IMG/VR virus record: IMGVR_UViG_3300046018_000110
Span: 1 to 60,874 of that record
DNA from: a virus
Taxonomy: Duplodnaviria; Caudoviricetes
Length of the DNA stretch: 60,874 nucleotides
Reading direction: 5' to 3' (one strand)
Both the position numbers and the translations under genes were made by a program. The notes under the pieces were generated by a model. The model was not told the DNA's origin. It searched no databases and was given only the letters and a program-made list of their open reading frames with translations. Every line of letters starts with the position of its first letter. Positions within the stretch are counted from its first letter, which is position 1. This document shows, piece by piece, positions 14,636 to 54,836 of the stretch.

Positions 14636-14832
14636 ACGCCTGGGGCGTAGCGTGGGGCGTCTCCTGGGGTGACTCGTGGGGCTCCGACGCTGTCGAGGGC
14701 ACCACCGGCGGCCACAAGAAGTCCAGCCCCTCGTGGGCCGCGCTGCGGCGCGAGCGCGCGCGACAAGATGAAGAAGAGGTGCTCGCCATCGTCAGCGTGC
14801 TGATGGCCACCTTCTACCAAGGATCACCATGA
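14632..14832 (+). CDS. Small protein with WGxx repeats
   Basis: AWGVAWGVSWGDSWG; coupled to both neighbours. Confidence 0.55.
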   Translation: MNAWGVAWGVSWGDSWGSDAVEGTTGGHKKSSPSWAALRRERARQDEEEVLAIVSVLMATFYQGSP

Positions 14833-17800
14833 CTGTGAAACTGACCGGCTGCATGAACCTCGTGACCAAGATGCCCGAGGAGGACCAGGAGCGCCTGCTC
14901 AAGCGCCTGGACGACTACGAAGCCAAGGGCGTGCCGCGCGAGAAGGCGCAGGTCATGGCGACCAAGGACACGCTGGCCGAGGTGCGCGCGGAGCGCGAGG
15001 AGCTGCACGGGCACGTGCGGGAGCAGCACCCGGATCTGTTCAAGGGGCTGCCGCCTCTGCGGGTCTACCATGGCAGCCGGCATGGCCCTGTCGAAGGCGC
15101 CGCCCGGATGGAGCCGCACGACGAGACGGGACACCCTGGCTTCTCCGTGTCCCTCGGCGAGAAGACCGCGCGCCGGTACGCCCACGACGTGGACGAACGG
15201 CACGACGACCCACCGACGAACCCGACGGTCAACGCGTTCGACCTGCACGGGAAATTGATGGGCTGGCAAGAGCTCTTGCAGGCCACGAGGGAACGACTCA
15301 AGCTGGGCGACACCGCGCTCCCGACGAGGGAGCAGGTCAACGAGACCGCACGCAGCATGGGGGTCACCGCGGTCGACCACAGGCAAAACCTGGGGATCGA
15401 CGAGCTCTCGGTGATCCACCCGGATGCGCTGCGCCCCGTGAGCCAAGAGAACGCCCAGGTCGCCAAGGACCAGACCGAGACGCCCGCGTTCAAGGCGTGG
15501 TTCGGCGACAGCAAGGTGGTGGACGCCGAGGGCAAGCCGCTGGTGGTGTACCACGGCACCTCACGAGATTTCTCTACCTTCGACGATTCAAAGATGTCCC
15601 CCACCCGCGTCAAGTTCGGTGACGCCAAAGGCTACTACTTCAGCGCGGACAAAGGGTACTCTGAGGCCTACGGGTCCGGGCAAGGCCACAATGTCATGCC
15701 AGTGTTCTTGTCGATGAAGAACCCGAAGTACGTCCAGTCGACGGTGGGGACCGCGTACTTCAACCCCCGGATGATCGAGAAGCTCCGAGGCGAAGGCCAC
15801 GATGGCGTGGTGTACCGAGGGGACGACGCGCACGGCGGAGGCTCCGAATACGTGGTTTTCGAGCCCACACAGATCAAGTCCGCCATCGGCAACAACGGCG
15901 ACTTCGACCCGACCAAGGGCGACATCTCCAAGCACTTCGACCTCACCCGCGAGAACAGCAACTTCTTCGGCGACCCGCACGACGAGACCGCCCTGGCGCT
16001 GCAGTCGGCCATCGAAGGCAAGACGCTGCGGCAGGCCGTCGAGCACGTCGTCAGCAACTCCACGGACGCCAGCTACCGCGAGATCGGGCAGCGCGTGCTC
16101 GACCGTATGGCGGAACTGGAGAACCACGGGGTCCAGTTCGACCTGAAGATCGCGCACGTGGGCGACTCCGTCCCCCGCAGCCTCCTGGGTGCCCGGGGCC
16201 TCGCGCACTACGTGTATGGCAAGGAAGGGGAGACCCCCGCGTCGCACACCGTCTGGATCAACGGCCACGACGTCACGGGCAAGAGCGGCATGTCCGAAGA
16301 GACCCTCATGCATGAGGCGATCCACACGGTCACGCAGTCCGCGCTGCGCCTGGGCAACTACTCGAAGGCGGCGGGTACCGACGCGGCCACGCTCTCGCAC
16401 GAGATGTTCGCCTTGAGCAACGCGCTCGTCAAGCACTTCAACAAGCGCGCGGCGGAAGCGAAGGCCGGTGGAACACCACTCACGGAGTTCGAGCAGGCGA
16501 TCTTCGAGCGGCGCTCGAACTCCCTGCAGAGCCCCGACGAGGTGCTCTCCTGGGGGCTGACGAACAAGCCCATGCAGGAGTGGATGGAGACAGTACCCTT
16601 CGACTCCAAGCAGTCCCTGTGGGGCAAGTTCGTCGACAGCATCCGGGGCTTCCTGGGCCTGGAGCCGAAGGCCAACACCGCACTGTCCGAATTGCTGCGC
16701 TTGGCCGACCGCGCTTTCGATTCTCCGGTGCACGAGCTGAAGAAGCTGGCCAGCGAGCGCGGCGAAAGCCTCCAGGTCCAGACGCCCGCGGGGGAGCAGA
16801 ACAACACCCAGCAGAGGCCCCGCGAGGACAGGGAGGCGAGGACGACTCCTCCAGTGGTCCACGCCGACCGCGCCGTGACTCTCACCCAGCGCGCGGGGGA
16901 TACCTTGTCTCGGGCGTGGCACGACCTGACCGATGGCATCCTCCCCATGAGCTCGGGGTCCGAGATCGCCCAGGCTACGTTGAAGGACTACGCCAACGAA
17001 GAGCGCGCCGCGCGAGATCAATGGCTGCGGTTCGACCAGATCCTGATCAAGCACTTCAAGGAGGACGAGCTAGTGCGGATGAGCGACGCGGCCGAGGAGG
17101 AGAACCTGATCCGCGGCGGCGATATCCCCGCGTCACCTGACATGGGTCTGGCAAGTCTCACGCCGGTGCAGCGCGCGACTGTCGAGACCCTGCATGCCTA
17201 CGCCGACGAGCGATTCGAGGCCGCCAAAGCCGCGGGGATGTACGAGGGCCCCGGCGTGCCCTACTGGATGCCCCGTATCTCCGTTGTGATGGACGAAGAA
17301 GGCCGCGCCATGCGACCGCGCGACAGCACGACGGTGGGCCGCAACATCGTCACCACGGCGCCCTCGTTGAAGGGTCGGAAGTACAAGACGATCGACGAGA
17401 CCGAGCGGGCCATGAAGCAACTCTTCGGTGACGGCGCCGAGGTGGTGCGGAACATCCGCGCGATGCCGTTGGCCATGGCCCGCCTGGACCGCGCGATCGC
17501 CGGAAAGAACCTCGTCGACAAGATCCGCACCATGGGCATGACGGTCGGCCAGGAGTTCGTGCGGGACGGGGAAGCCCCCGGGTACGAGAAGATCGACCTG
17601 CCGGGGGTTCGAGGAGCAAATCTCTACGTCGCGCAAGAGTGGGCGGGCCCGGTTCGCTCCGTGATGTACGACCCCCCTGGCAAGTGGGAGGGCCGCTTCA
17701 TGGACGCCAAAGCGGAGTCCACGAGCCTGATCATGTACACCCCTTTCATGCACGGCACCACGGTGTTCGGCAAGGCGTTCCCCGCCAGTTGGTCGCTCTC

Positions 17801-19463
17801 GAAGCCGGGGGAGAAGGCCGCGTTCCTCGCAACCGGAGGCCTCAGCGGGGTAGTCCGAATGGTCGCGCTGGCTACCCGGGGGTATCAACTGCGCAAGATC
17901 GATGGCTTGAGCGCGGCGGAGCAGAAGGCTCGCTACGGGGAGATCAAAGAACTCATCCGCGCTGGTCTCGTGCCCTTCAGCGGGCGCGGCGCGCGCCAGG
18001 ACATCACGGGCATCGTCAATGACCCCCGGCTCACCCCCGGCCATGGGCTGAAGTCCCGCGCGATAGGCGGCGCTGTCGGCCTGCTGAACAAGCGTGCCGG
18101 TGAGGCGACAAAGCGGGGTCTAGACAAGTTCGGGGACGTCTGGCATGGCACGCTGCTGTGGAACCGTATCGCGGACTTCCAGGTAGGCCTCGCCGCCCAC
18201 GCGCGGGACTACTATGAAGAGCTCCACCTGAAGCAGGGGATGACCGCGGAGCAGGCCCGGTACGCAGCACTCCGTCAGGCAGCCCATACCGCCAACCGCT
18301 ACACCGGCGCGATCAGCTCCGAGGCGATGAGTCAAGGCACGCGCAAACTGCTCGGGTGGACGCTGTTCAGTCGTTCGTACAACGTGACGAACATCGGAGC
18401 ATTCAAGGACGCGGGCATGGGACTGCCCTCGGAGATCCAGGCGCAGCTCAAGATCAACCAAGGCCCCGATGTCGCCGACAAGGCCAACGTGGCGTACCGA
18501 AAGAAGGCTCGGTCTGCGCTGATGATGGACATCGGGGTGACGTACATCGCCAACTCAATCTTCCAAGACCTGCTCGACCATTTCAAGCGCGACAAGTCAT
18601 GGTCCGACATCGAGCAGGGCTACGTCGACCGGTTCCACGAGGCGATGACCAAAGCGTACAAAGACCCGATGGCGATCATGCCCTTCGTCGGGCACCCGTT
18701 CGAGTGGACCCACAGCTTCTTCAGCAACAGCGAGAACGAACCGGGCAAGCAGAACCGGATCAAGATCGACAAGATGTCCGACGGTACCTGGGTCTACGCA
18801 CGCTCCGCACTGGGCAAGATGGGCGAAGACTTGGAGGGGTGGTCAGGAGACTTCTTCAACACCTTGTGGAAGAAGACGGGGTCTCTGATCCGGCCCGCGA
18901 TCGAAGTAGCGATGGAGGCGAGGGATCCCGACAAGCCCATCGCGGCGCGGATCTGGACGCCTGACGACAACGCGCTGCAGGCCATCGGAAAAGCCGTGGT
19001 GCATATCCTCGGCGGCGCAGTGCCGGTGAACGACGCGATGACCCTCGGGGACCTGCTGTCGGGCACCTCCGCAAGCGCGGGCATGAGCCAGCAGGGCAAG
19101 GATCTCGCGGCTCAAGAGAAGGCCAAGCTGCTCGTTCCAATCGTCTCCGGGGTCACCCTCAGTCGGGGGTACCCCGGCGGCGCGGTCGCCGGCGAACTGG
19201 CGCACAACGAGACGATGCAGCGGCAACGGAAAGAAGCCCTGTTGCCGGAAGCGAACAAGTTACTGAAGACAGGTATCGAGGCCGACCGCGACAAGGCGAT
19301 CGGCATCATGCTGGACCTCAAGATGGCCCCTCCCGAGATCATCTCCCACATCAAGGGACAGATCGCCCCGGAGTCACGAGTCACCGCCAAGCGCGAGATC
19401 AAAGACGCCCGGTTCATGTCCGAGGACGAGATGGCGAAGCTGAAACGGGCCGGGGCTCAATGA
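14829..19463 (+). CDS. Large polyvalent virion protein: two ADP-ribosyltransferase (ART-PolyVal-like) domains, a zincin metallopeptidase and a helical C-terminal region
   Basis: RVYHGS...ARRYA...ELSVIHP; FKAWFGDSKVVDAEGKPLVVYHGT...GYYFS...HDGVVY...EYVVFEPTQIKSAIGNNGDF; HEAIH with a downstream E. Confidence 0.85.
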   Translation: MTVKLTGCMNLVTKMPEEDQERLLKRLDDYEAKGVPREKAQVMATKDTLAEVRAEREELHGHVREQHPDLFKGLPPLRVYHGSRHGPVEGAARMEPHDETGHPGFSVSLGEKTARRYAHDVDERHDDPPTNPTVNAFDLHGKLMGWQELLQATRERLKLGDTALPTREQVNETARSMGVTAVDHRQNLGIDELSVIHPDALRPVSQENAQVAKDQTETPAFKAWFGDSKVVDAEGKPLVVYHGTSRDFSTFDDSKMSPTRVKFGDAKGYYFSADKGYSEAYGSGQGHNVMPVFLSMKNPKYVQSTVGTAYFNPRMIEKLRGEGHDGVVYRGDDAHGGGSEYVVFEPTQIKSAIGNNGDFDPTKGDISKHFDLTRENSNFFGDPHDETALALQSAIEGKTLRQAVEHVVSNSTDASYREIGQRVLDRMAELENHGVQFDLKIAHVGDSVPRSLLGARGLAHYVYGKEGETPASHTVWINGHDVTGKSGMSEETLMHEAIHTVTQSALRLGNYSKAAGTDAATLSHEMFALSNALVKHFNKRAAEAKAGGTPLTEFEQAIFERRSNSLQSPDEVLSWGLTNKPMQEWMETVPFDSKQSLWGKFVDSIRGFLGLEPKANTALSELLRLADRAFDSPVHELKKLASERGESLQVQTPAGEQNNTQQRPREDREARTTPPVVHADRAVTLTQRAGDTLSRAWHDLTDGILPMSSGSEIAQATLKDYANEERAARDQWLRFDQILIKHFKEDELVRMSDAAEEENLIRGGDIPASPDMGLASLTPVQRATVETLHAYADERFEAAKAAGMYEGPGVPYWMPRISVVMDEEGRAMRPRDSTTVGRNIVTTAPSLKGRKYKTIDETERAMKQLFGDGAEVVRNIRAMPLAMARLDRAIAGKNLVDKIRTMGMTVGQEFVRDGEAPGYEKIDLPGVRGANLYVAQEWAGPVRSVMYDPPGKWEGRFMDAKAESTSLIMYTPFMHGTTVFGKAFPASWSLSKPGEKAAFLATGGLSGVVRMVALATRGYQLRKIDGLSAAEQKARYGEIKELIRAGLVPFSGRGARQDITGIVNDPRLTPGHGLKSRAIGGAVGLLNKRAGEATKRGLDKFGDVWHGTLLWNRIADFQVGLAAHARDYYEELHLKQGMTAEQARYAALRQAAHTANRYTGAISSEAMSQGTRKLLGWTLFSRSYNVTNIGAFKDAGMGLPSEIQAQLKINQGPDVADKANVAYRKKARSALMMDIGVTYIANSIFQDLLDHFKRDKSWSDIEQGYVDRFHEAMTKAYKDPMAIMPFVGHPFEWTHSFFSNSENEPGKQNRIKIDKMSDGTWVYARSALGKMGEDLEGWSGDFFNTLWKKTGSLIRPAIEVAMEARDPDKPIAARIWTPDDNALQAIGKAVVHILGGAVPVNDAMTLGDLLSGTSASAGMSQQGKDLAAQEKAKLLVPIVSGVTLSRGYPGGAVAGELAHNETMQRQRKEALLPEANKLLKTGIEADRDKAIGIMLDLKMAPPEIISHIKGQIAPESRVTAKREIKDARFMSEDEMAKLKRAGAQ

Positions 19464-19471
19464 GCATAGAA

Positions 19472-19487
19472 GGGGACAATCGTCCCC
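19472..19487 (-). terminator. Hairpin terminator downstream of tRNA-Val (possibly bidirectional)
   Basis: GGGGAC-AATC-GTCCCC between convergent units. Confidence 0.5.
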
Positions 19488-19503
19488 GTCTTGTGTACAT
19501 CTA

Positions 19504-19578
19504 TGGTGGGCGCCGACGGGATCGAACCGCCGACCCGCTGCGTGTAAGGCAGCCGCTCTACCACTGAGCTAGGCGCCC
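19504..19578 (-). tRNA. tRNA-Val(TAC)
   Basis: Full cloverleaf GGGCGCC TA GCTC AGTGGTA GAGC G GCTGC CTTACAC GCAGC GGGTC GGCGG TTCGATC CCGTC GGCGCCC A CCA. Confidence 0.96.
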
Positions 19579-19580
19579 TC

Positions 19581-19762
19581 GCTGCATTTTTGCTACATCA
19601 CCGTAGGCCCTGAAGGGTCTGCTTGTGTTGCGATTTGAGTCTAACTTGTTGATTTTCCTGGTGGGTATCGGCCGCTTCCCAGGGCCGGAACGCCTTGTAA
19701 GGGGTTGGTTCTAGCAAGTGTCCACGCGGGTTTCCGCTGGATCTGCTACATTCTCGCTGCAC
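19581..19762. other. Putative attP: arm-type repeats, IHF site and a core at a tRNA-Val anticodon-loop sequence
   Basis: GCTRCAY direct-repeat pairs at 19581/19592 and 19745/19756; IHF consensus at 19642-19654; core AACGCC-TTGTAA-GGGGTT at 19689-19706; adjacent to the integrase. Confidence 0.7.
19659..19706 (-). pseudogene. Decayed 3' half of a tRNA-Val(TAC)
   Basis: Minus strand CCCTTACAAGGCGT...ACCCACCA at near-tRNA spacing but with no T-loop. Confidence 0.6.
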
Positions 19763-19777
19763 CAAGCAGGAGAAACC

Positions 19778-20827
19778 ATGCCCATCTACAAGCGTCAGGG
19801 GAAGTTCCAAGTGGTGGTCCGTCGCAAAGGGTTCCCTCCGTACTTCGAGACGTGGCCAACCCGGCGCGAAGCAGACGCCGACGAGGCTCGCATCGAGGCC
19901 GAGATCCGCCTGGGCAACCGCGTCGACCACCGCGAGATCGCGGAGACCACGGTGCGCCAGCTCCTCACGAAGTACGACGAGGACGTCTGCGGGCGCGACG
20001 ACAAGAACGGGCGCAAGGACAGCAACCGCATCAACGCGTGGCTGGCGGAGCGCTGGACCCTCCTGGCGCTCAACCAGGACATCACCAGCGCCCTGCGCGA
20101 CTGGGGCGACCGCCGACTGCGCGAGGTCACCGCCGCCACCCACAACCGCGACCTGAACCTGCTCTCGTCGATCTTCAGCCACGCGATCAAGGTCTGGGGC
20201 ATCCGCTTCGTGCACCCCATCATGGGGCAGATGAAGCGCCCCGCCGGCGCGGCCGGCGAGCATCGGGAGGTGCTCTGGACCGACGAGCAATTGCAGGCCG
20301 TTCTGGGCCTGCGGGAGTTCGACCCTGCCCTACCCCCCACCTCGGCGCTGCAAACGCTGCCATGGACGATTCTGTGCCTTCGGCACACGGGTCTGCGCTT
20401 GGGCCAGTTGGTGGCGACGCGGATGGAGTGGCTGCACCTGGAGAACCCGGCGGCGCCCTGGATCGAGTTCCCGGCCGGTGTGGTCAAGAACCGCAAGCCC
20501 CACAAGCTGCCGCTGTCGACCCGCGGGCTGGCCTGGGTCTCGGCGCTGGCGGGGCACCGGCGCGGGGAAGATCGCCTGTTCCCCTTCCGCGAGGGGACTC
20601 TGGGGCAGGCCTGGAGGCGGGACACGCAGCCGCGCCTGCTGGAGACGCGGCCGGAGATGGGCGACCACACGCTGCACGATCTGCGCCACACCTGGACGAC
20701 GGAGATGGTCGACGTGCGGAAGGTGCCCCTGCTGCAGCTGATGAAGATCAGCGGCCGGGAGTCTGAACGGGAGCTGCGTCGATACTACAACCCGACCGCT
20801 GAGACTCTGGCGCCGTTGATGGGCTGA
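19778..20827 (+). CDS. int: Tyrosine integrase
   Basis: TGLRLGQL, VKN, HDLRHT and C-terminal RRYY; ATG 19778 after GGAG. Confidence 0.92.
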   Translation: MPIYKRQGKFQVVVRRKGFPPYFETWPTRREADADEARIEAEIRLGNRVDHREIAETTVRQLLTKYDEDVCGRDDKNGRKDSNRINAWLAERWTLLALNQDITSALRDWGDRRLREVTAATHNRDLNLLSSIFSHAIKVWGIRFVHPIMGQMKRPAGAAGEHREVLWTDEQLQAVLGLREFDPALPPTSALQTLPWTILCLRHTGLRLGQLVATRMEWLHLENPAAPWIEFPAGVVKNRKPHKLPLSTRGLAWVSALAGHRRGEDRLFPFREGTLGQAWRRDTQPRLLETRPEMGDHTLHDLRHTWTTEMVDVRKVPLLQLMKISGRESERELRRYYNPTAETLAPLMG

Positions 20828-20867
20828 TCGGCCCGGGCCGATATCCGAACGATATCGGCTGCGGGCG

Positions 20868-21029
20868 CTATTCCGGCAGCCCGCTACTGTTGCTGACGCA
20901 CTTCACCTTGGTGAGGTCCAGGCCCAGCGTGACGGCCGCGTTGTGGCAGGCCTGGGCGCTGTAGTACTCGCCCAGCTGAGTGACACGCGGCTGGCCGGCG
21001 AGGAGGGTGATGACGAAGAGGAGGTACAT
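20868..21029 (-). CDS. Small hypothetical protein
   Basis: Last ORF of the leftward operon; hydrophobic N-terminus. Confidence 0.4.
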   Translation of the reverse strand: MYLLFVITLLAGQPRVTQLGEYYSAQACHNAAVTLGLDLTKVKCVSNSSGLPE

Positions 21030-21039
21030 GCTGCGCAGT

Positions 21040-21279
21040 CTACGCTGGTTGGAGCGGCCGCTCGTGGCTGTAGGGGCTGTACTCCCACTCCCCGTAGCAT
21101 TCCTCACGCTGGTGCATCTCCAGGCACTCGGGATGCATCTTGCTGGTGGTCGCCGTGTCGTCGAAGGTGACCCAGCGGTGGTACTTCTCACTGACCTGTA
21201 TGGCCTCCCCGCAGCTGGTGCATCTGTGCTGCTTGCGGGCTGTGAGGATCTGGGGATCGGTGTTGAACATGGTCATCAC
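21040..21279 (-). CDS. Small Zn-binding hypothetical protein
   Basis: ARKQHRCTSCGEAI...HPEC. Confidence 0.65.
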   Translation of the reverse strand: MMTMFNTDPQILTARKQHRCTSCGEAIQVSEKYHRWVTFDDTATTSKMHPECLEMHQREECYGEWEYSPYSHERPLQPA

Positions 21280-21473
21280 CCCTTGTCGGGGTCGACCTCA
21301 AAGCGCCGGCACAGCTGGGTGGCGAAAGTCGACCCCAGGCCGAACGCGTCCATCACCGCCACCCAGGGCGGCGTGCGTTTCGGTCTGCGATTGCGCACCG
21401 CCGACAGCACGGCGCGCCGCACCAGATCCTCGTCGGGGATGACCGCGACGGTGCGCTCCACGGCCTCGGTCAC
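21276..21473 (-). CDS. Conserved small phage protein
   Basis: WVAVMDAFGLGSTFATQLCRRFEVDPD; GTG start overlapping the upstream stop. Confidence 0.6.
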   Translation of the reverse strand: MTEAVERTVAVIPDEDLVRRAVLSAVRNRRPKRTPPWVAVMDAFGLGSTFATQLCRRFEVDPDKG

Positions 21474-21871
21474 ACCAACCCCCGCGTCGACTGCCCCACC
21501 GGCTCGCCCGTGTTGGCGATGACCTGTACCGCTCGGTCGTCCCAGAGCTCGATCATCCCGTAGTCCTTGACGCACGTGACCTCGAGCGTTTCCCCCAGGT
21601 GCTGCCGGCACCACGCGCGGATCGCGCGGAGGGCTTCGACCGCCTCCCCGCGCCGGCGCATCACTTCAGAGTACTGTGGGGTCGTGACGGAAGGCAGCTC
21701 AGGGCAGTACGCCCTGGCCGTGAAGATCTTCACCTGATGGCCCTCTGCGCGCCAGCGCTTCACGCGCTCCCGCATCGGGCCCACGGGCTCGCCGAGGTGG
21801 CTCGCGCCCTTCCAGCCGTCGTAGACCGCCAGGGTGCCGTCGAAGTCGACGCCGATCCATCCGTTGCTCAT
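21470..21871 (-). CDS. Capless HAD-superfamily phosphatase
   Basis: VDFDGTL (motif I), IFTAR (II), K (III), WDDRA (IV). Confidence 0.8.
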   Translation of the reverse strand: MSNGWIGVDFDGTLAVYDGWKGASHLGEPVGPMRERVKRWRAEGHQVKIFTARAYCPELPSVTTPQYSEVMRRRGEAVEALRAIRAWCRQHLGETLEVTCVKDYGMIELWDDRAVQVIANTGEPVGQSTRGLV

Positions 21872-22146
21872 GCCGGTTCCTTGTTGTCGAATGCGCCCAT
21901 CAAGAGCAGCCTGATCTCGTCCATCTTCAGGCAGTCGTCGAGGTCGCTGAACGATCTGTACGCCAGCTTGCCGTACGCCCAGGCCAGGAGAGCGATCAGT
22001 TCCTCTTGGCTCATCGCGGCGCCGCAGAAGATGCAGCGCTCGGGCGCGGGGCCATCCTCGGCGGCGACGCGCGCCACGTAGTCGGCGAGCGTGCGGATCT
22101 GCCCTGGTGGGGTGCTGGTGGCCTTGTGGGCGGGGGTGCGCATCAT
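21868..22146 (-). CDS. Hypothetical protein
   Basis: Coupled ORF with CxxC. Confidence 0.5.
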   Translation of the reverse strand: MMRTPAHKATSTPPGQIRTLADYVARVAAEDGPAPERCIFCGAAMSQEELIALLAWAYGKLAYRSFSDLDDCLKMDEIRLLLMGAFDNKEPA

Positions 22147-22319
22147 TTCTTGGCCGCCCCGAGCAGCGTGCGGATAGCGATGAAGAGCGCGGCGCTCCAG
22201 AACGCCCAGGCGTAGCTCTCGGTCACGACGGCGTAGACGAACGTGACGCCGGGCAGCGCGAAGGTGGTGAAGATCCAGTGCGTCTGGAACAACGCGACGA
22301 GGAGTTGGTCAGCTGTCAT
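22143..22319 (-). CDS. Small membrane protein
   Basis: Two hydrophobic segments; coupled. Confidence 0.5.
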   Translation of the reverse strand: MTADQLLVALFQTHWIFTTFALPGVTFVYAVVTESYAWAFWSAALFIAIRTLLGAAKK

Positions 22320-22594
22320 TTCGTGGTCTGCTTTCCGACGTTGTAGCCACTCTGGCCTTTGCGCCAACCGCGGTTGGCCTTCTGGCTGGTGACCATGAGA
22401 TTGGCGTCCTTGGAGGTGCCCCCGTCTTGCAGGGCGGTGATGTGGGCCACGTCCTTGCCGTCGCCGACGTGGACCTTGCCCTCCTTGATCAGGTGCTGGC
22501 GCGCGAGGTTGTTGGCCTCCCGCTTCTTCACGTTGGCCGGCAGGGCGTTGTAGGCCTTCTGCGCGGCCAGCTTGGTCGGGCTGCTCTTGGTCAT
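22316..22594 (-). CDS. Small HNH-like nuclease
   Basis: GDGKDVAH...GG...NL.....ANR. Confidence 0.65.
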   Translation of the reverse strand: MTKSSPTKLAAQKAYNALPANVKKREANNLARQHLIKEGKVHVGDGKDVAHITALQDGGTSKDANLMVTSQKANRGWRKGQSGYNVGKQTTK

Positions 22595-22878
22595 GCGTTT
22601 CTCCATCGTTGAACCGAGCGCAGTGGCACGCCCAGGTGGCTGGCCACCGCGATGGCCTTCCAGCCCTGTCCCATCAAGGCCCTGGCGGTCTGCCGGGCGT
22701 TCTCCCGGCTCCGCTCACGGTCGAAGGCAGCCGCGCGGTCGCTGCCCCTGCCCTGCTTGTTGATGCCGTTCCAGACGGACAGGGGGATCTCGATCGTGGT
22801 GTACCGGGTGCCCTCCTCGCCGGCGTAGCGGCGACGCTTGTAGCCCTCGGCCGTCGTGCGGGTCTCGAGTACTGTCAC
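22591..22878 (-). CDS. DNA-binding protein (NrdR-like N-terminal strand motif plus C-terminal HTH)
   Basis: VLETR....KRRRY.....RYTTIE; IAVASHLGVPLRSVQRWR. Confidence 0.55.
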   Translation of the reverse strand: MTVLETRTTAEGYKRRRYAGEEGTRYTTIEIPLSVWNGINKQGRGSDRAAAFDRERSRENARQTARALMGQGWKAIAVASHLGVPLRSVQRWRNA

Positions 22879-22984
22879 AGCACCACCCACTGCGGCACTG
22901 GCAGCACGCGGTGCCACCGGCCCGAGGGTGTCTGCAGGAACCAGCCCCCGCGCTTCCAAAGACGGGGTGAGCGGTAGGCGAGCT

Positions 22985-23251
22985 TCACGGCTTGGCTCCT
23001 GCTGCGCGCCCAGTGATCCAAGCCTGCGCAGCCTTGGCTGCTTCGATGTAGGCTGGGCTGGGCGTGCCGTTGATCTCTTGGCCGGGTTTGTACGTCGACC
23101 AGATGCGAGCGCGAAGCCCGGCAGGCAACGCGAACCAGTGGCCTTTGCAGCCCCACATCGCGGGCGGCACCTGCTTGTCGCAGCCCGGCCAATGGCAGTG
23201 GTGATTGCGCGTCTGTCCTTGGCTGCGCACGTAGTCTGCTTTGGTGGTCAC
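22985..23251 (-). CDS. Conserved Cys/His phage protein
   Basis: HHCHWPGC...MWGCKGHWFALP; flanked by 22-bp direct repeats. Confidence 0.65.
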   Translation of the reverse strand: MTTKADYVRSQGQTRNHHCHWPGCDKQVPPAMWGCKGHWFALPAGLRARIWSTYKPGQEINGTPSPAYIEAAKAAQAWITGRAAGAKP

Positions 23252-23269
23252 GGCTTGGCTCCTGCTGCG
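22985..23269. repeat. 22-bp direct repeat TCACGGCTTGGCTCCTGCTGCG at 22985-23006 and 23248-23269
   Basis: Exact match seen in the sequence. Confidence 0.9.
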
Positions 23270-23622
23270 GCCAGGATGGCGCGGGCGATAGGGCGGAAGC
23301 CTTTGCCGTAGGTGCGCAGGTACGGCACATCGTTATCGTTCGAGCCGCAGAACCGCAGAAACACCGCGTCGATCTGCTCATCCGTCAGCGGCTGCGCCAC
23401 TGGAGCGGCGAGGATGGGCGATACGTGATGCCAGAGGAACATGCAGAAGTTCGCCACGTCTCGTGGGTCGCCCTTCTCGACGTGGTCGCGCAGCATTTCA
23501 GACAGCGACAGCGGGGAGCATGTCTGCCAGCCGCCCCGGCCTTTCTCGCGAGCGGCGGCCAGCTTAGCTTTCATCTGAAGCGCGAATTCGTCAACGGCTT
23601 CGTCGTCAGGGTGCTCGTTCAT
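23248..23622 (-). CDS. Conserved phage all-alpha protein
   Basis: AVDEFALQMKAKLAAAREKGRGGW...KGDPRDVANFCMFL. Confidence 0.65.
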   Translation of the reverse strand: MNEHPDDEAVDEFALQMKAKLAAAREKGRGGWQTCSPLSLSEMLRDHVEKGDPRDVANFCMFLWHHVSPILAAPVAQPLTDEQIDAVFLRFCGSNDNDVPYLRTYGKGFRPIARAILAAAGAKP

Positions 23623-23762
23623 GCCGGCGCCCCGTAGATCACGAGGCACACGACCGCCACCAGGGCGCAGAGCGTGGCCAGGGTGGAGAGGACGAACCCG
23701 CGCGTGACCAGACGGCACGCCTCGTTGAGCTCTTCGTCGTTGATCTGCCGCCAGGGCTTCAT
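23619..23762 (-). CDS. Small single-TM protein
   Basis: Coupled ORF with a C-terminal hydrophobic helix. Confidence 0.5.
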   Translation of the reverse strand: MKPWRQINDEELNEACRLVTRGFVLSTLATLCALVAVVCLVIYGAPA

Positions 23763-24100
23763 GACTTGGCCTTCTCGGTGGCCTCGGCGCCGCGGTGGCG
23801 CTCGCCCAGGTGGAAGGGGCGCGCGGTCTCGGTGGACTTGAATCCAACCTTCTTCGCGAAGGCCGCCGCCGCCACGCGCTTCTGGGCCATGATGTCGGCC
23901 AGGGCTTCCATCCAGGCGCGCACGTCGGCCACACGCCACGCCAGCTTGCGGGTGCCTGGGATCTGGAAGCGCGGGGGCAGCGTCTCGGGCCGGCGGCTGG
24001 AGTCGATCTTGACGCTCTTGGTCGAGCGTCCGATGAGCTTGCCGAGCTCCGCCGCGTCCATCAGGCGCTGGTCGTCGAGGGGTGCCGTGTTGCTGTTCAT
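23759..24100 (-). CDS. Excisionase/AlpA-like winged HTH protein
   Basis: LMDAAELGKLIGRSTKSV...LPPRFQIPGTRKLAWRVADVRAWM. Confidence 0.75.
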   Translation of the reverse strand: MNSNTAPLDDQRLMDAAELGKLIGRSTKSVKIDSSRRPETLPPRFQIPGTRKLAWRVADVRAWMEALADIMAQKRVAAAAFAKKVGFKSTETARPFHLGERHRGAEATEKAKS

Positions 24101-24107
24101 GCGGTGA

Positions 24108-24136
24108 ATGTTATCAGGGCTTACGTCGCCTTGCAA
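24108..24136 (-). promoter_or_regulatory. Sigma70 promoter for the xis-like gene (likely leaderless), with an operator-like site at 24110-24124
   Basis: TTGCAA-17 bp-TAACAT; ATG 7 nt downstream of the -10. Confidence 0.7.
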
Positions 24137-24518
24137 GCATTTCCGCAGTGAATTCCTCGCCGGTCAGGCTGAAGCTGCCCACCGTCGGGCAGTGGCAGCT
24201 GTAGTACCCCACCTTGCTGCAGACGGTGCACTCCGTGGGCCCCGGCGGTACCGGCACGGGAGGTAGGTCGATGTCCACCGGCGCGCCGGCCAGCTTCTGG
24301 CTCAGCCGGTGCAGGCGCGCGTTGAACCACCGGCGCAGCACGTACTGGCGCGCGATGCTGACGCCGGTGAACAGGAGACCGATCTGGATGTTCTGGGCGA
24401 TCGTGACGTGGAAGCCGAACAACGGCAGGATCAGCAGGTTGCCGAAGAAGTTGATGACGTAGCCGATGACGATGTTCGCCATGGCCTCGATGAAGCTACC
24501 GAGGCGGGTCTGGGTCAT
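24114..24518 (-). CDS. Conserved phage membrane protein with a Cys-rich tail
   Basis: QTRLGSFIEAMANIVIGY...SIARQYVLRRWFN. Confidence 0.7.
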   Translation of the reverse strand: MTQTRLGSFIEAMANIVIGYVINFFGNLLILPLFGFHVTIAQNIQIGLLFTGVSIARQYVLRRWFNARLHRLSQKLAGAPVDIDLPPVPVPPGPTECTVCSKVGYYSCHCPTVGSFSLTGEEFTAEMLARRRKP

Positions 24519-24889
24519 GCCAGTTCCTGAAGATCGTCGGAGGTGTACGGGAACGCGAGCACCACATCCGCCCGTGCGATATTGGCCGCATCGCTGCACC
24601 CGTCGGGGTAGCGCTTGTCGAGCTTGGCCTTGTTGTTGGCCGCGAGGTCTTCGAGCGTCCAGCCCTGCTTGATGCACAGCATCACGAGGTAGTGCAGCGT
24701 GTCACCGGCCTCTGTCTGCAGCTTGACGAGGTCGAGCTCCTTGCCAGAGACCCAGGTCTTCTTGACGAGGTCGAGTACCTCACCGCCCTCACCGGCCAGC
24801 CCGATGGCCGCGTGCAGCGTGCCCTCCAGGCCGTGGCGGCGCTTGACGAACAGACGGTCGACGTAGGGGAAGAATTCGGGGAGCTTCAT
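24515..24889 (-). CDS. mazG: MazG-like nucleotide pyrophosphohydrolase
   Basis: GLAGEGGEVLDLVKK...EAGDTLHY...NKAKLDKRYPDG. Confidence 0.88.
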   Translation of the reverse strand: MKLPEFFPYVDRLFVKRRHGLEGTLHAAIGLAGEGGEVLDLVKKTWVSGKELDLVKLQTEAGDTLHYLVMLCIKQGWTLEDLAANNKAKLDKRYPDGCSDAANIARADVVLAFPYTSDDLQELA

Positions 24890-29287: not shown

Positions 29288-29375
29288 TGGTGGGGAGGGC
29301 TGGATTCAAACCAACACGGCTCTAGGCCGACCTCGGGGTTACAGCCCGGTGCCCTCTCGAATAGGCGTCCTCCCC
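29288..29375 (-). tRNA. Atypical tRNA-Tyr(GTA) with a long variable arm
   Basis: GGGGAGG/CCTCCCC-A-CCA acceptor, CTGTAAC loop, variable stem CGGC/GCCG, T-loop TTTGAAT. Confidence 0.8.
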
Positions 29376-54759: not shown

Positions 54760-54836
54760 TGCGGGGTAGCTCAGTAGGTCAGAGCAGCGGCTTCATACGC
54801 CGACGGTCACCGGTTCAAATCCAGTCCCCGCAACCA
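54760..54836 (+). tRNA. tRNA with CAT anticodon (Met; Ile2 not excluded)
   Basis: TGCGGGG TA GCTC AGTAGGTCA GAGC A GCGGC TTCATAC GCCGA CGGTC ACCGG TTCAAAT CCAGT CCCCGCA A CCA. Confidence 0.92.

Follow-up and report, generated by a model that had tools for sequence, protein, structure and literature searches.

Between its integrase gene and an intact tRNA-Val(UAC) gene, a wetland phage carries a noncoding spacer with traces of a second, decayed tRNA-Val. This arrangement raises the question of where the phage would integrate and, should a host tRNA-Val gene be its target, of what the intact phage tRNA is for. A first-pass annotation of this DNA had proposed that integration destroys the host gene and that the lysogen could come to depend on the phage tRNA. 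Having followed up this proposal computationally, we give about an even chance to the reading that the spacer, at 19579-19777, is an attP with tRNA-dependent lysogeny, judging from the features described below.

The integrase locus and its attP-like spacer

The window, i.e. the whole stretch of DNA that was analysed (60,874 bases), is an entire virus record with direct terminal repeats and is rated complete. It encodes a large terminase, a portal, a major head protein and a family A DNA polymerase, and has a GC content of ~62-72%. The head protein belongs to the N4-gp56 family, as judged from how its many metagenomic relatives, 73-87% identical to it, are named. No near DNA match to the phage was found in a collection of phage isolates, and its integrase and terminase have only distant matches among isolated phages. 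Along the + strand, the locus consists of the gene for a 1544-aa protein, a hairpin, tRNA-Val(UAC) on the - strand, the 199-bp spacer and the integrase gene. The integrase and tRNA-Val genes are therefore divergent, with the attP-like spacer in between, and noncoding DNA elsewhere beside int amounts to only ~40 bp. The features discussed in this work are the following:

14829-19463 (+), gene for a 1544-aa protein with an ART-PolyVal domain, stop at 19463
19472-19487 (no strand assigned), GC-rich hairpin that separates the stop of the 1544-aa gene from the 3' end of tRNA-Val and resembles a terminator on the + strand
19504-19578 (-), intact phage tRNA-Val(UAC), 75 nt, CCA encoded (ARAGORN; Rfam tRNA, 67.2 bits)
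19579-19777, attP-like spacer of 199 bp between tRNA-Val and the integrase gene
19581-19598 (+), distal GCTRCAY pair, 11-bp spacing, same orientation as the proximal pair
19654-19642 (-), predicted IHF-consensus-like site AATCAACAAGTTA, between the core/dyad and the distal repeats
19659-19689 (-), 3' part of tRNA-Val in decayed form, with a CGGCC/GGCCG hairpin (9-nt loop) in place of the T arm and ACCCACCA still present at the end
19706-19689 (minus-strand reading), imperfect dyad AACCCC-TTACAA-GGCGTT around the anticodon triplet, 5/6 arm positions complementary
19690-19703 (-), putative common core, 14 bp that also make up positions 30-43 of Burkholderiales tRNA-Val(UAC), in its anticodon stem and loop
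19708-19720 (-), D-arm-like stretch, in register with the core and identical at 10/13 positions to nucleotides 12-24 of host tRNA-Val
19745-19762 (+), integrase-proximal GCTRCAY pair (GCTACAT, GCTGCAC), 11-bp spacing, candidate arm-type Int sites
19778-20827 (+), tyrosine integrase, 349 aa (Pfam PF00589)
29291-29375 (-), third tRNA, 85 nt, Tyr-like
54760-54836 (+), tRNA with a CAT anticodon, between the portal and head genes

The integrase matches PF00589 with E=2e-08 and, in an alignment of ten sequences, its catalytic residues R207, H300, R303 and Y336 show no variation and K237 almost none. Its nearest homologue among the 5.8 billion proteins searched is 41% identical. Among the genes beside int (20868-24677), PHROGs recognised neither an excisionase nor a repressor. 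On the other side of the spacer, residues 232-359 of the 1544-aa protein match ART-PolyVal (the ADP-ribosyltransferase domain of polyvalent proteins) with E=9.8e-29, and this protein may be an injected virion protein.

In a lambda-type attP, the core lies between repeated arm-type sites, an IHF consensus is found between the core and one arm, and the whole spans ~200 bp beside int. The spacer of this phage has the same layout, with a repeat motif that is new, whose copies are candidate Int sites and all point one way. Four copies of GCTRCAY start at 19581, 19592, 19745 and 19756 on the + strand, forming two pairs that are each spaced 11 bp start to start. As the motif occurs 47 times in the whole window on both strands, only ~0.14 copies would be expected in the 182-bp span where four are seen, on one strand only. 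Between the two pairs sits the dyad, and at 19654-19642 AATCAACAAGTTA fits WATCAANNNNTTR, the IHF consensus. Read directly from the letters, the dyad, the end of the remnant, the IHF-like site, the intact tRNA-Val and the repeats all lie where the first-pass annotation had placed them, and its observation that the repeats (19581/19592 and 19745/19756) flank the dyad rather than the intact tRNA was also borne out. That the pairs flank the 14-bp core, and not the intact tRNA-Val, counts for the attP reading.

The core (minus-strand letters CCCTTACAAGGCGT) comprises, in the host tRNA-Val(UAC), two anticodon-stem pairs, the loop and the 3' strand of the stem. Beyond it the remnant runs TCCGGCCC..., where the host gene has AGGTC..., and in the 31 nt that follow the 14-bp identity only the last 8 (ACCCACCA, ending at 19659) match as a block, with a spacing that is 2 nt short: the distance from CCTTACAAGG to CCCACCA is 27 nt in the remnant and 29 nt in a real tRNA. 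An ordinary attP that rebuilds the tRNA needs ~45 bp of identity, from the crossover to the 3' end, and no such identity is present here. The description of this element as a T-loop-less remnant holds in so far as the T loop is gone and the ACCCACCA end is there, although the T arm has been replaced rather than deleted, the stretch being just 2 nt shorter. Likewise, the element had been called a tRNA-Val half, which fits the 3' part with its ACCCACCA but not the D-arm-like stretch that is also found left of the core, whose 10/13 match would arise by chance in ~1% of cases (binomial estimate).

In order to assess the similarity, the stretch 19579-19777 was compared with a Burkholderiales tRNA-Val(UAC) gene (L044). 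The local score of 19 was reached by none of 2000 shuffles (mean 9.8, maximum 16), nor did any of the 2000 reach the 14-nt exact match. Real tRNAs aside, every other 199-nt tile of the window scores lower against the host tRNA-Val. Rfam detected no tRNA in the remnant at E<=10, and the comparison of the remnant with the phage's own intact tRNA was not significant (54/500 shuffles reached its score). The signal appears only against the host-type tRNA. Taken together, these comparisons support the view that the remnant is derived from tRNA-Val and located where an attP would be expected. Two considerations weigh against the attP reading. In a tRNA pseudogene that decays uniformly, at ~62% overall identity, an unbroken match of 14 nt has a probability of ~0.06 by a rough estimate, which is not very rare, and the D-arm-like stretch fits a decayed whole tRNA equally well. 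The same stretch hints that an attP, if this is one, was derived from a whole captured tRNA gene.

The predicted host target and other elements at the same site

The first-pass annotation required a host tRNA that matches the core of the dyad, and such a tRNA was found. A scan for the 14-mer in one genome per prokaryotic species (bacteria and archaea) gave at least 121 matches. Among the matches listed, the 14 bp of 19690-19703 lie, without a mismatch, inside ARAGORN-called tRNA-Val(tac) genes in 89 of 121, and 85 of those 89 have Burkholderiales-type flanks on both sides. Among the 80 match titles listed, most are of Burkholderiales (for example Rubrivivax, Roseateles, Hydrogenophaga, Variovorax, Acidovorax and Paraburkholderia), with fewer other gammaproteobacteria. 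The match to this tRNA, the GC content and the names of a few relatives all point to a host that is probably a Burkholderiales bacterium; the names in question are those of an Aquabacterium MAG and Noviherbaspirillum among integrase relatives and of a Burkholderiales MAG among capsid relatives.

In most of these genomes the target is present once. The 14-mer was found in 96 of the 121 genomes of a family sample taken around a Rubrivivax MAG (single in 91, two copies in 5) and in 26 of the 201 genomes of an order sample (single in 24, two copies in 2). All five genomes that were checked have one full-length tRNA-Val(UAC) match each; in three of them the next-best matches were also retrieved and are tRNA-Thr, -Lys, -Gly and -Val(CAC). 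By the established decoding rules, neither tRNA-Val(CAC) nor tRNA-Val(GAC) reads GUA, and the target tRNA-Val(UAC) should therefore be needed. In some genomes with two copies of the 14-mer (G226, G263 and G267), the second copy is within 50 bases of a contig end; such copies may be att repeats of elements at tRNA-Val(UAC) and not second genes. One genome (G059) has tandem tRNA-Val(UAC) genes, with copies 96 bp apart.

The same boundary is used by other elements. A scan of viral contigs for the 14-mer gave at least 116 matches, and at least 13 contigs carry att-type sites that consist of the 3' half only, all 13 of which begin their identity at the same 14-mer (C30). Furthermore, a 109.6-kb viral record (G605; L245, L210, L383, L384) has a full tRNA-Val(UAC) and an integrase at one end and, at the other end, a tRNA repeat running from the same boundary to the 3' end, which constitutes a mapped attL/attR pair. 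Judging from this pair, G605 is a large element integrated at the anticodon loop of tRNA-Val(UAC); its integrase is 27% identical to that of the phage. Because the 13 att sites and G605 have the same boundary, the anticodon loop of tRNA-Val(UAC) is a well-used crossover site. The phage core has the left boundary common to those elements and lacks their long 3' identity.

Ordinary elements at tRNA-Val(UAC) thus resemble the phage in where identity starts, at C30, and differ from it in keeping the whole 3' half (~47 bp), so that the tRNA is rebuilt. They have no tRNA-Val of their own in the DNA fetched, whereas the phage has one. In L195, L204 and G605 the integrase lies downstream of the 3' half and in the same direction, while that of the phage lies upstream and in the opposite direction; this inversion of the core relative to int counts against the attP reading. 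Their integrases mostly belong to a more distant subfamily than that of the phage, and the bit scores against its family profile, 107-122 for most integrases beside tRNA-Val(UAC) as opposed to 250-446 for family members, count in the same sense, the integrase of G605 alone reaching 244 bits. As a side observation, the ordinary att sites of other phages show no tRNA similarity left of the core, unlike what is seen at 19708-19720.

The relatives of the integrase itself are of little help in locating its site. A single-protein search of viral contigs yielded no close relative, and an alignment search of the same contigs yielded 33 loci with best-segment identities of 22-41%; the first 13 of these 33 loci were scanned for tRNAs, and the top 10 had none. 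Matches at E<=1e-20 were found in 17 of the 401 genomes of a family sample, at 19 loci. Relatives with 28-35% identity adjoin tRNAs for Pro, Thr, Leu, Val-GAC and Val-CAC, or no tRNA within 1.5 kb. Since the sites are so varied, homology does not predict the integration site, which again counts against the attP reading.

None of the five complete relatives of the phage (capsid 68-79% identical) carries a tRNA, and this counts for tRNA-dependent lysogeny. Two of them, G600 (L381) and G604 (L382), have capsids 79% identical to that of the phage and an integrase that is only 31% identical; it is located 3' of a + strand gene, as in this phage, with no adjoining tRNA. The ~300-bp spacer upstream of their integrase contains no tRNA and has no match to five Burkholderiales genomes, and the attP of G600 gave a significant match in none of five host genomes. 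The other three complete relatives are without an integrase of this family. In this phage lineage the tRNA-Val accompanies this particular int-attP module. When the C-terminal part of the 1544-aa protein was used as a synteny anchor, two distant contigs were retrieved, with no tRNA in the DNA fetched, and in the one whose downstream genes were listed the gene order differs from that of the phage.

Predicted junctions and the phage tRNA-Val

In order to predict the outcome of integration at the core, attB and attL sequences were built in silico from seven host genes and analysed with ARAGORN. The host tRNA was found in all seven attB sequences, and a tRNA at the position of the hybrid in none of the seven predicted attL sequences, where the sole call was the phage tRNA-Val, 154 nt after the start of the host tRNA. 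The predicted hybrid would be a dead tRNA because the phage sequence 3' of the core encodes no T arm. The proposed destruction of the host tRNA-Val by integration thus agrees with the predicted junctions, in all seven cases, but no integrated copy was found. A 25-mer across the core and remnant had no match in genomes, metagenome contigs or viral contigs, and a 28-mer beside the core had none in metagenome contigs. The integrated relatives from which attL and attR of this phage were to be mapped did not turn up in genomes, in metagenome or viral contigs or in the contigs of three wetland runs.

These three runs, from three studies, contain the phage. One of them, which may be its source, yielded a 17,972-nt contig within 16000-24000 that bridges the attP region with zero differences, and the other two yielded just short, low-depth pieces over 16000-24000. 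Among the contig joints and loose ends listed for the three runs, none is at the core. Such contigs have no bearing on whether integration occurs.

The intact phage tRNA-Val starts 80 nt downstream of the 3' end of the remnant and is co-oriented with it. Its anticodon arm, GCTGC-CTTACAC-GCAGC, does differ from the core, as had been noted, with only 8 of 14 positions identical, and the whole tRNA is ~80% identical to the host tRNA-Val(UAC), and likewise to the host tRNA-Val(CAC). The same arm occurs in tRNA-Val genes of seven other viral contigs, with no related integrase nearby. In these unrelated, mostly large viral contigs (L303, L307-L309, L311-L313), the D-arm and anticodon-arm core is as in the phage and the acceptor stems differ, and this pattern suggests a tRNA lineage circulating among phages. 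A sample of 301 genomes of the phylum gave no bacterial match above 91% identity, a value reached in G081, whose tRNA-Val(UAC) has the similar arm TCTGC-CTTACAC-GCAGA. Because the arm is common to the seven viral contigs and the best bacterial match is 91%, the phage tRNA-Val is a natural tRNA that was borrowed, and not the recoded one that the first-pass annotation had proposed.

The phage itself seems to have little translational need for tRNA-Val(UAC), since GTA accounts for only 34 of the 657 valine codons in 12 phage genes. Its carriage of tRNAs is not tied to the attP alone, given two further tRNAs elsewhere, which counts against the proposal. The one at 54760-54836, called by ARAGORN and Rfam, could be Met (elongator or initiator) or Ile2, and the one at 29291-29375 was missed by ARAGORN and found by Rfam (42.9 bits), with a GTA anticodon and a long variable arm by eye.

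As regards expression, a simple scan of 19300-19900 and 19750-21300 found no sigma-70-like promoter, in keeping with the earlier remark that the phage tRNA-Val has no clear promoter, and inspection by eye shows no more than a weak TTCAGG-17-AAAAAT upstream of it. The scan found no terminator-like site on the tRNA strand from the core to tRNA-Val, which counts for the proposal, and none from the leftward gene ending at 20868 to tRNA-Val. Transcription from a host promoter could, after integration, pass the hybrid and continue into the phage tRNA-Val. An equally possible route in the free phage starts from the leftward operon, with transcripts antisense to int that run on into the tRNA.

Competing explanations and known systems

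If the spacer is an attP with 19690-19703 as its crossover core, Int would occupy both GCTRCAY pairs as well as the core, IHF would bend the arm in between, and strand exchange would take place in or beside the anticodon loop of a Burkholderiaceae-type host tRNA-Val(UAC). The host 5' half, joined to phage DNA that lacks a T arm 3' of the core, would be a dead tRNA. Decoding would be taken over by the cognate tRNA-Val(UAC) of the phage, which lies 80 nt downstream in the same orientation. The differing anticodon arm probably keeps the phage tRNA-Val from being a target of its own integrase. The host, the integration event, the route of expression and the dependence are what we infer from these data. 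An extended version, which we consider unlikely in its entirety, involves capture of the host promoter, an idea prompted by the fact that the tRNA lies close by and co-oriented. Integration would cut the only tRNA-Val(UAC) gene of the host, whose promoter would then transcribe the promoterless phage copy in second place in a small tRNA operon; the phage tRNA would be made from the host promoter only when integrated, the cell would need the prophage copy as long as the prophage remained, and the attP would go back to the capture of an entire tRNA-Val gene, both flanks of its core having decayed once it was redundant.

It is also conceivable, if somewhat doubtful, that the remnant is a dead pseudogene that is no longer used, having once been an attP or else the upstream one of two captured tandem genes, that the integrase has another core or is idle, and that the intact tRNA serves lytic translation or counters a tRNA-cutting host defence. 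The D-arm-like similarity left of the core suggests just such a decayed whole tRNA, and tandem tRNA-Val(UAC) genes do occur (96 bp apart in G059); nevertheless, the perfect block starts exactly at the boundary of 13 other att sites and G605, the paired repeats and the IHF-like site are arranged around it, and other noncoding DNA beside int is merely ~40 bp. An ordinary phage tRNA would fit the two other tRNAs elsewhere and an anticodon arm of common phage type, but GTA codons are rare in the phage and none of the five complete relatives has a tRNA. That no junctions were found in genome, metagenome or viral contigs or in the wetland runs is what an unused core would predict.

Integration might instead be of the ordinary reconstituting kind and take place in the intact tRNA. 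The 3' portion of a host tRNA-Val, beginning at the anticodon loop, would then be identical to that of the phage copy, a crossover at 19543-19549 would rebuild the gene, and the remnant would be irrelevant. We regard this as highly improbable, since nothing above 91% was found in 301 sampled genomes, even though some genomes have the similar arm TCTGC-CTTACAC-GCAGA (91% identity, G081), and in wetland-run contigs the tRNA matches from other organisms have 6-7 differences. The distal repeat pair does abut tRNA-Val, but all four repeats would then fall on one side, and the host-identical 14-mer and its common boundary would be left unexplained. Finally, integration could occur at the core with no dependence, if the host has a second tRNA-Val(UAC) or tolerates the loss and the phage tRNA is a bonus. 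Two 14-mer copies are indeed present in 5/96 family and 2/26 order genomes, some second copies being at contig ends, where they may be att repeats, and the target is single-copy in 91/96 and 24/26. A tRNA-Val(CAC) is present in all three genomes whose other matches were fetched, but neither Val(CAC) nor Val(GAC) reads GUA by the established decoding rules, and a lysogen free of dependence appears distinctly improbable to us.

The preferred reading, tRNA-dependent lysogeny, has precedents, and as a mechanism it is already published, so that the idea is not new. In actinobacteriophages, Fionnbharth, LeBron and Gaia among them, it has been proven for phages of mycobacteria and Gordonia that have cognate tRNAs and cores of 8-17 bp (Guerrero-Bustamante & Hatfull, mBio 2024; PMC10865867). 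In those systems attB lies across a host tRNA gene that is essential as the only one for its anticodon, a tRNA mutant gives clear plaques, close relatives rebuild the tRNA or use another site, and the authors predicted that the mechanism exists elsewhere too (PMC10865867). The features of these systems that we find here are a short core with no tRNA rebuilt at the junction (in silico, 7/7), a cognate tRNA-Val(tac) of 67.2 bits carried by the phage, and a tyrosine integrase with adjacent candidate repeats, dyad and IHF-like site. The differences are several: junction sequencing and phage mutants as opposed to a prediction from sequence, Actinobacteria as opposed to a probable Burkholderiales host, and tRNAs for Lys, Ile2 and Leu as opposed to Val(UAC). 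Fionnbharth has its tRNA at a separate place in the genome, under a demonstrated promoter of its own, whereas here the tRNA is 80 nt downstream of the core and co-oriented, with no promoter-like site by scan. Decayed tRNA traces on both sides of the core also set this predicted attP apart from the actinobacteriophage cases.

A closer setting is that of Sinorhizobium meliloti prophages resembling Mesorhizobium phage vB_MloP_Lo5R7ANS, in which tRNA-Leu(UAG) is inactivated by central integration and the prophages carry a tRNA with the same anticodon that resembles genes of other species (PMC11476347); PMC12429752 refers back to this case. Those are integrated prophages of two strains of Alphaproteobacteria, with Leu, as opposed to a free genome with Val. 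In the titles and the opening lines of abstracts of the literature on tRNA-dependent lysogeny, we found no case in a Burkholderiales phage or with tRNA-Val. Possibly new here are the proteobacterial setting and the place where the phage tRNA lies, namely 80 nt downstream in the same orientation.

If true, the proposal would add a new phage group, with an N4-gp56-type capsid and probable Burkholderiales hosts, to the range of tRNA-dependent lysogeny, which is proven in actinobacteriophages and has been recognised from sequence in two rhizobial prophages. The locus would then be an evolutionary intermediate, an attP with the recognisable wreckage of a once-rebuilt tRNA beside the replacement gene. 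The pairing of a short core with a cognate tRNA can be used to predict attB sites and hosts for uncultured temperate phages, and such int-attP-tRNA modules could become integration vectors with their own selection.

Elsewhere in the window, contig depth rises 3- to 10-fold over 23209-23475 in all three wetland runs. The long contigs break at 23334/23381, and short high-depth pieces and variants are found at 23278 and 23304. This region looks like a stretch common to other genomes, or a variable spot within the ORF at 23248-23934 (-).
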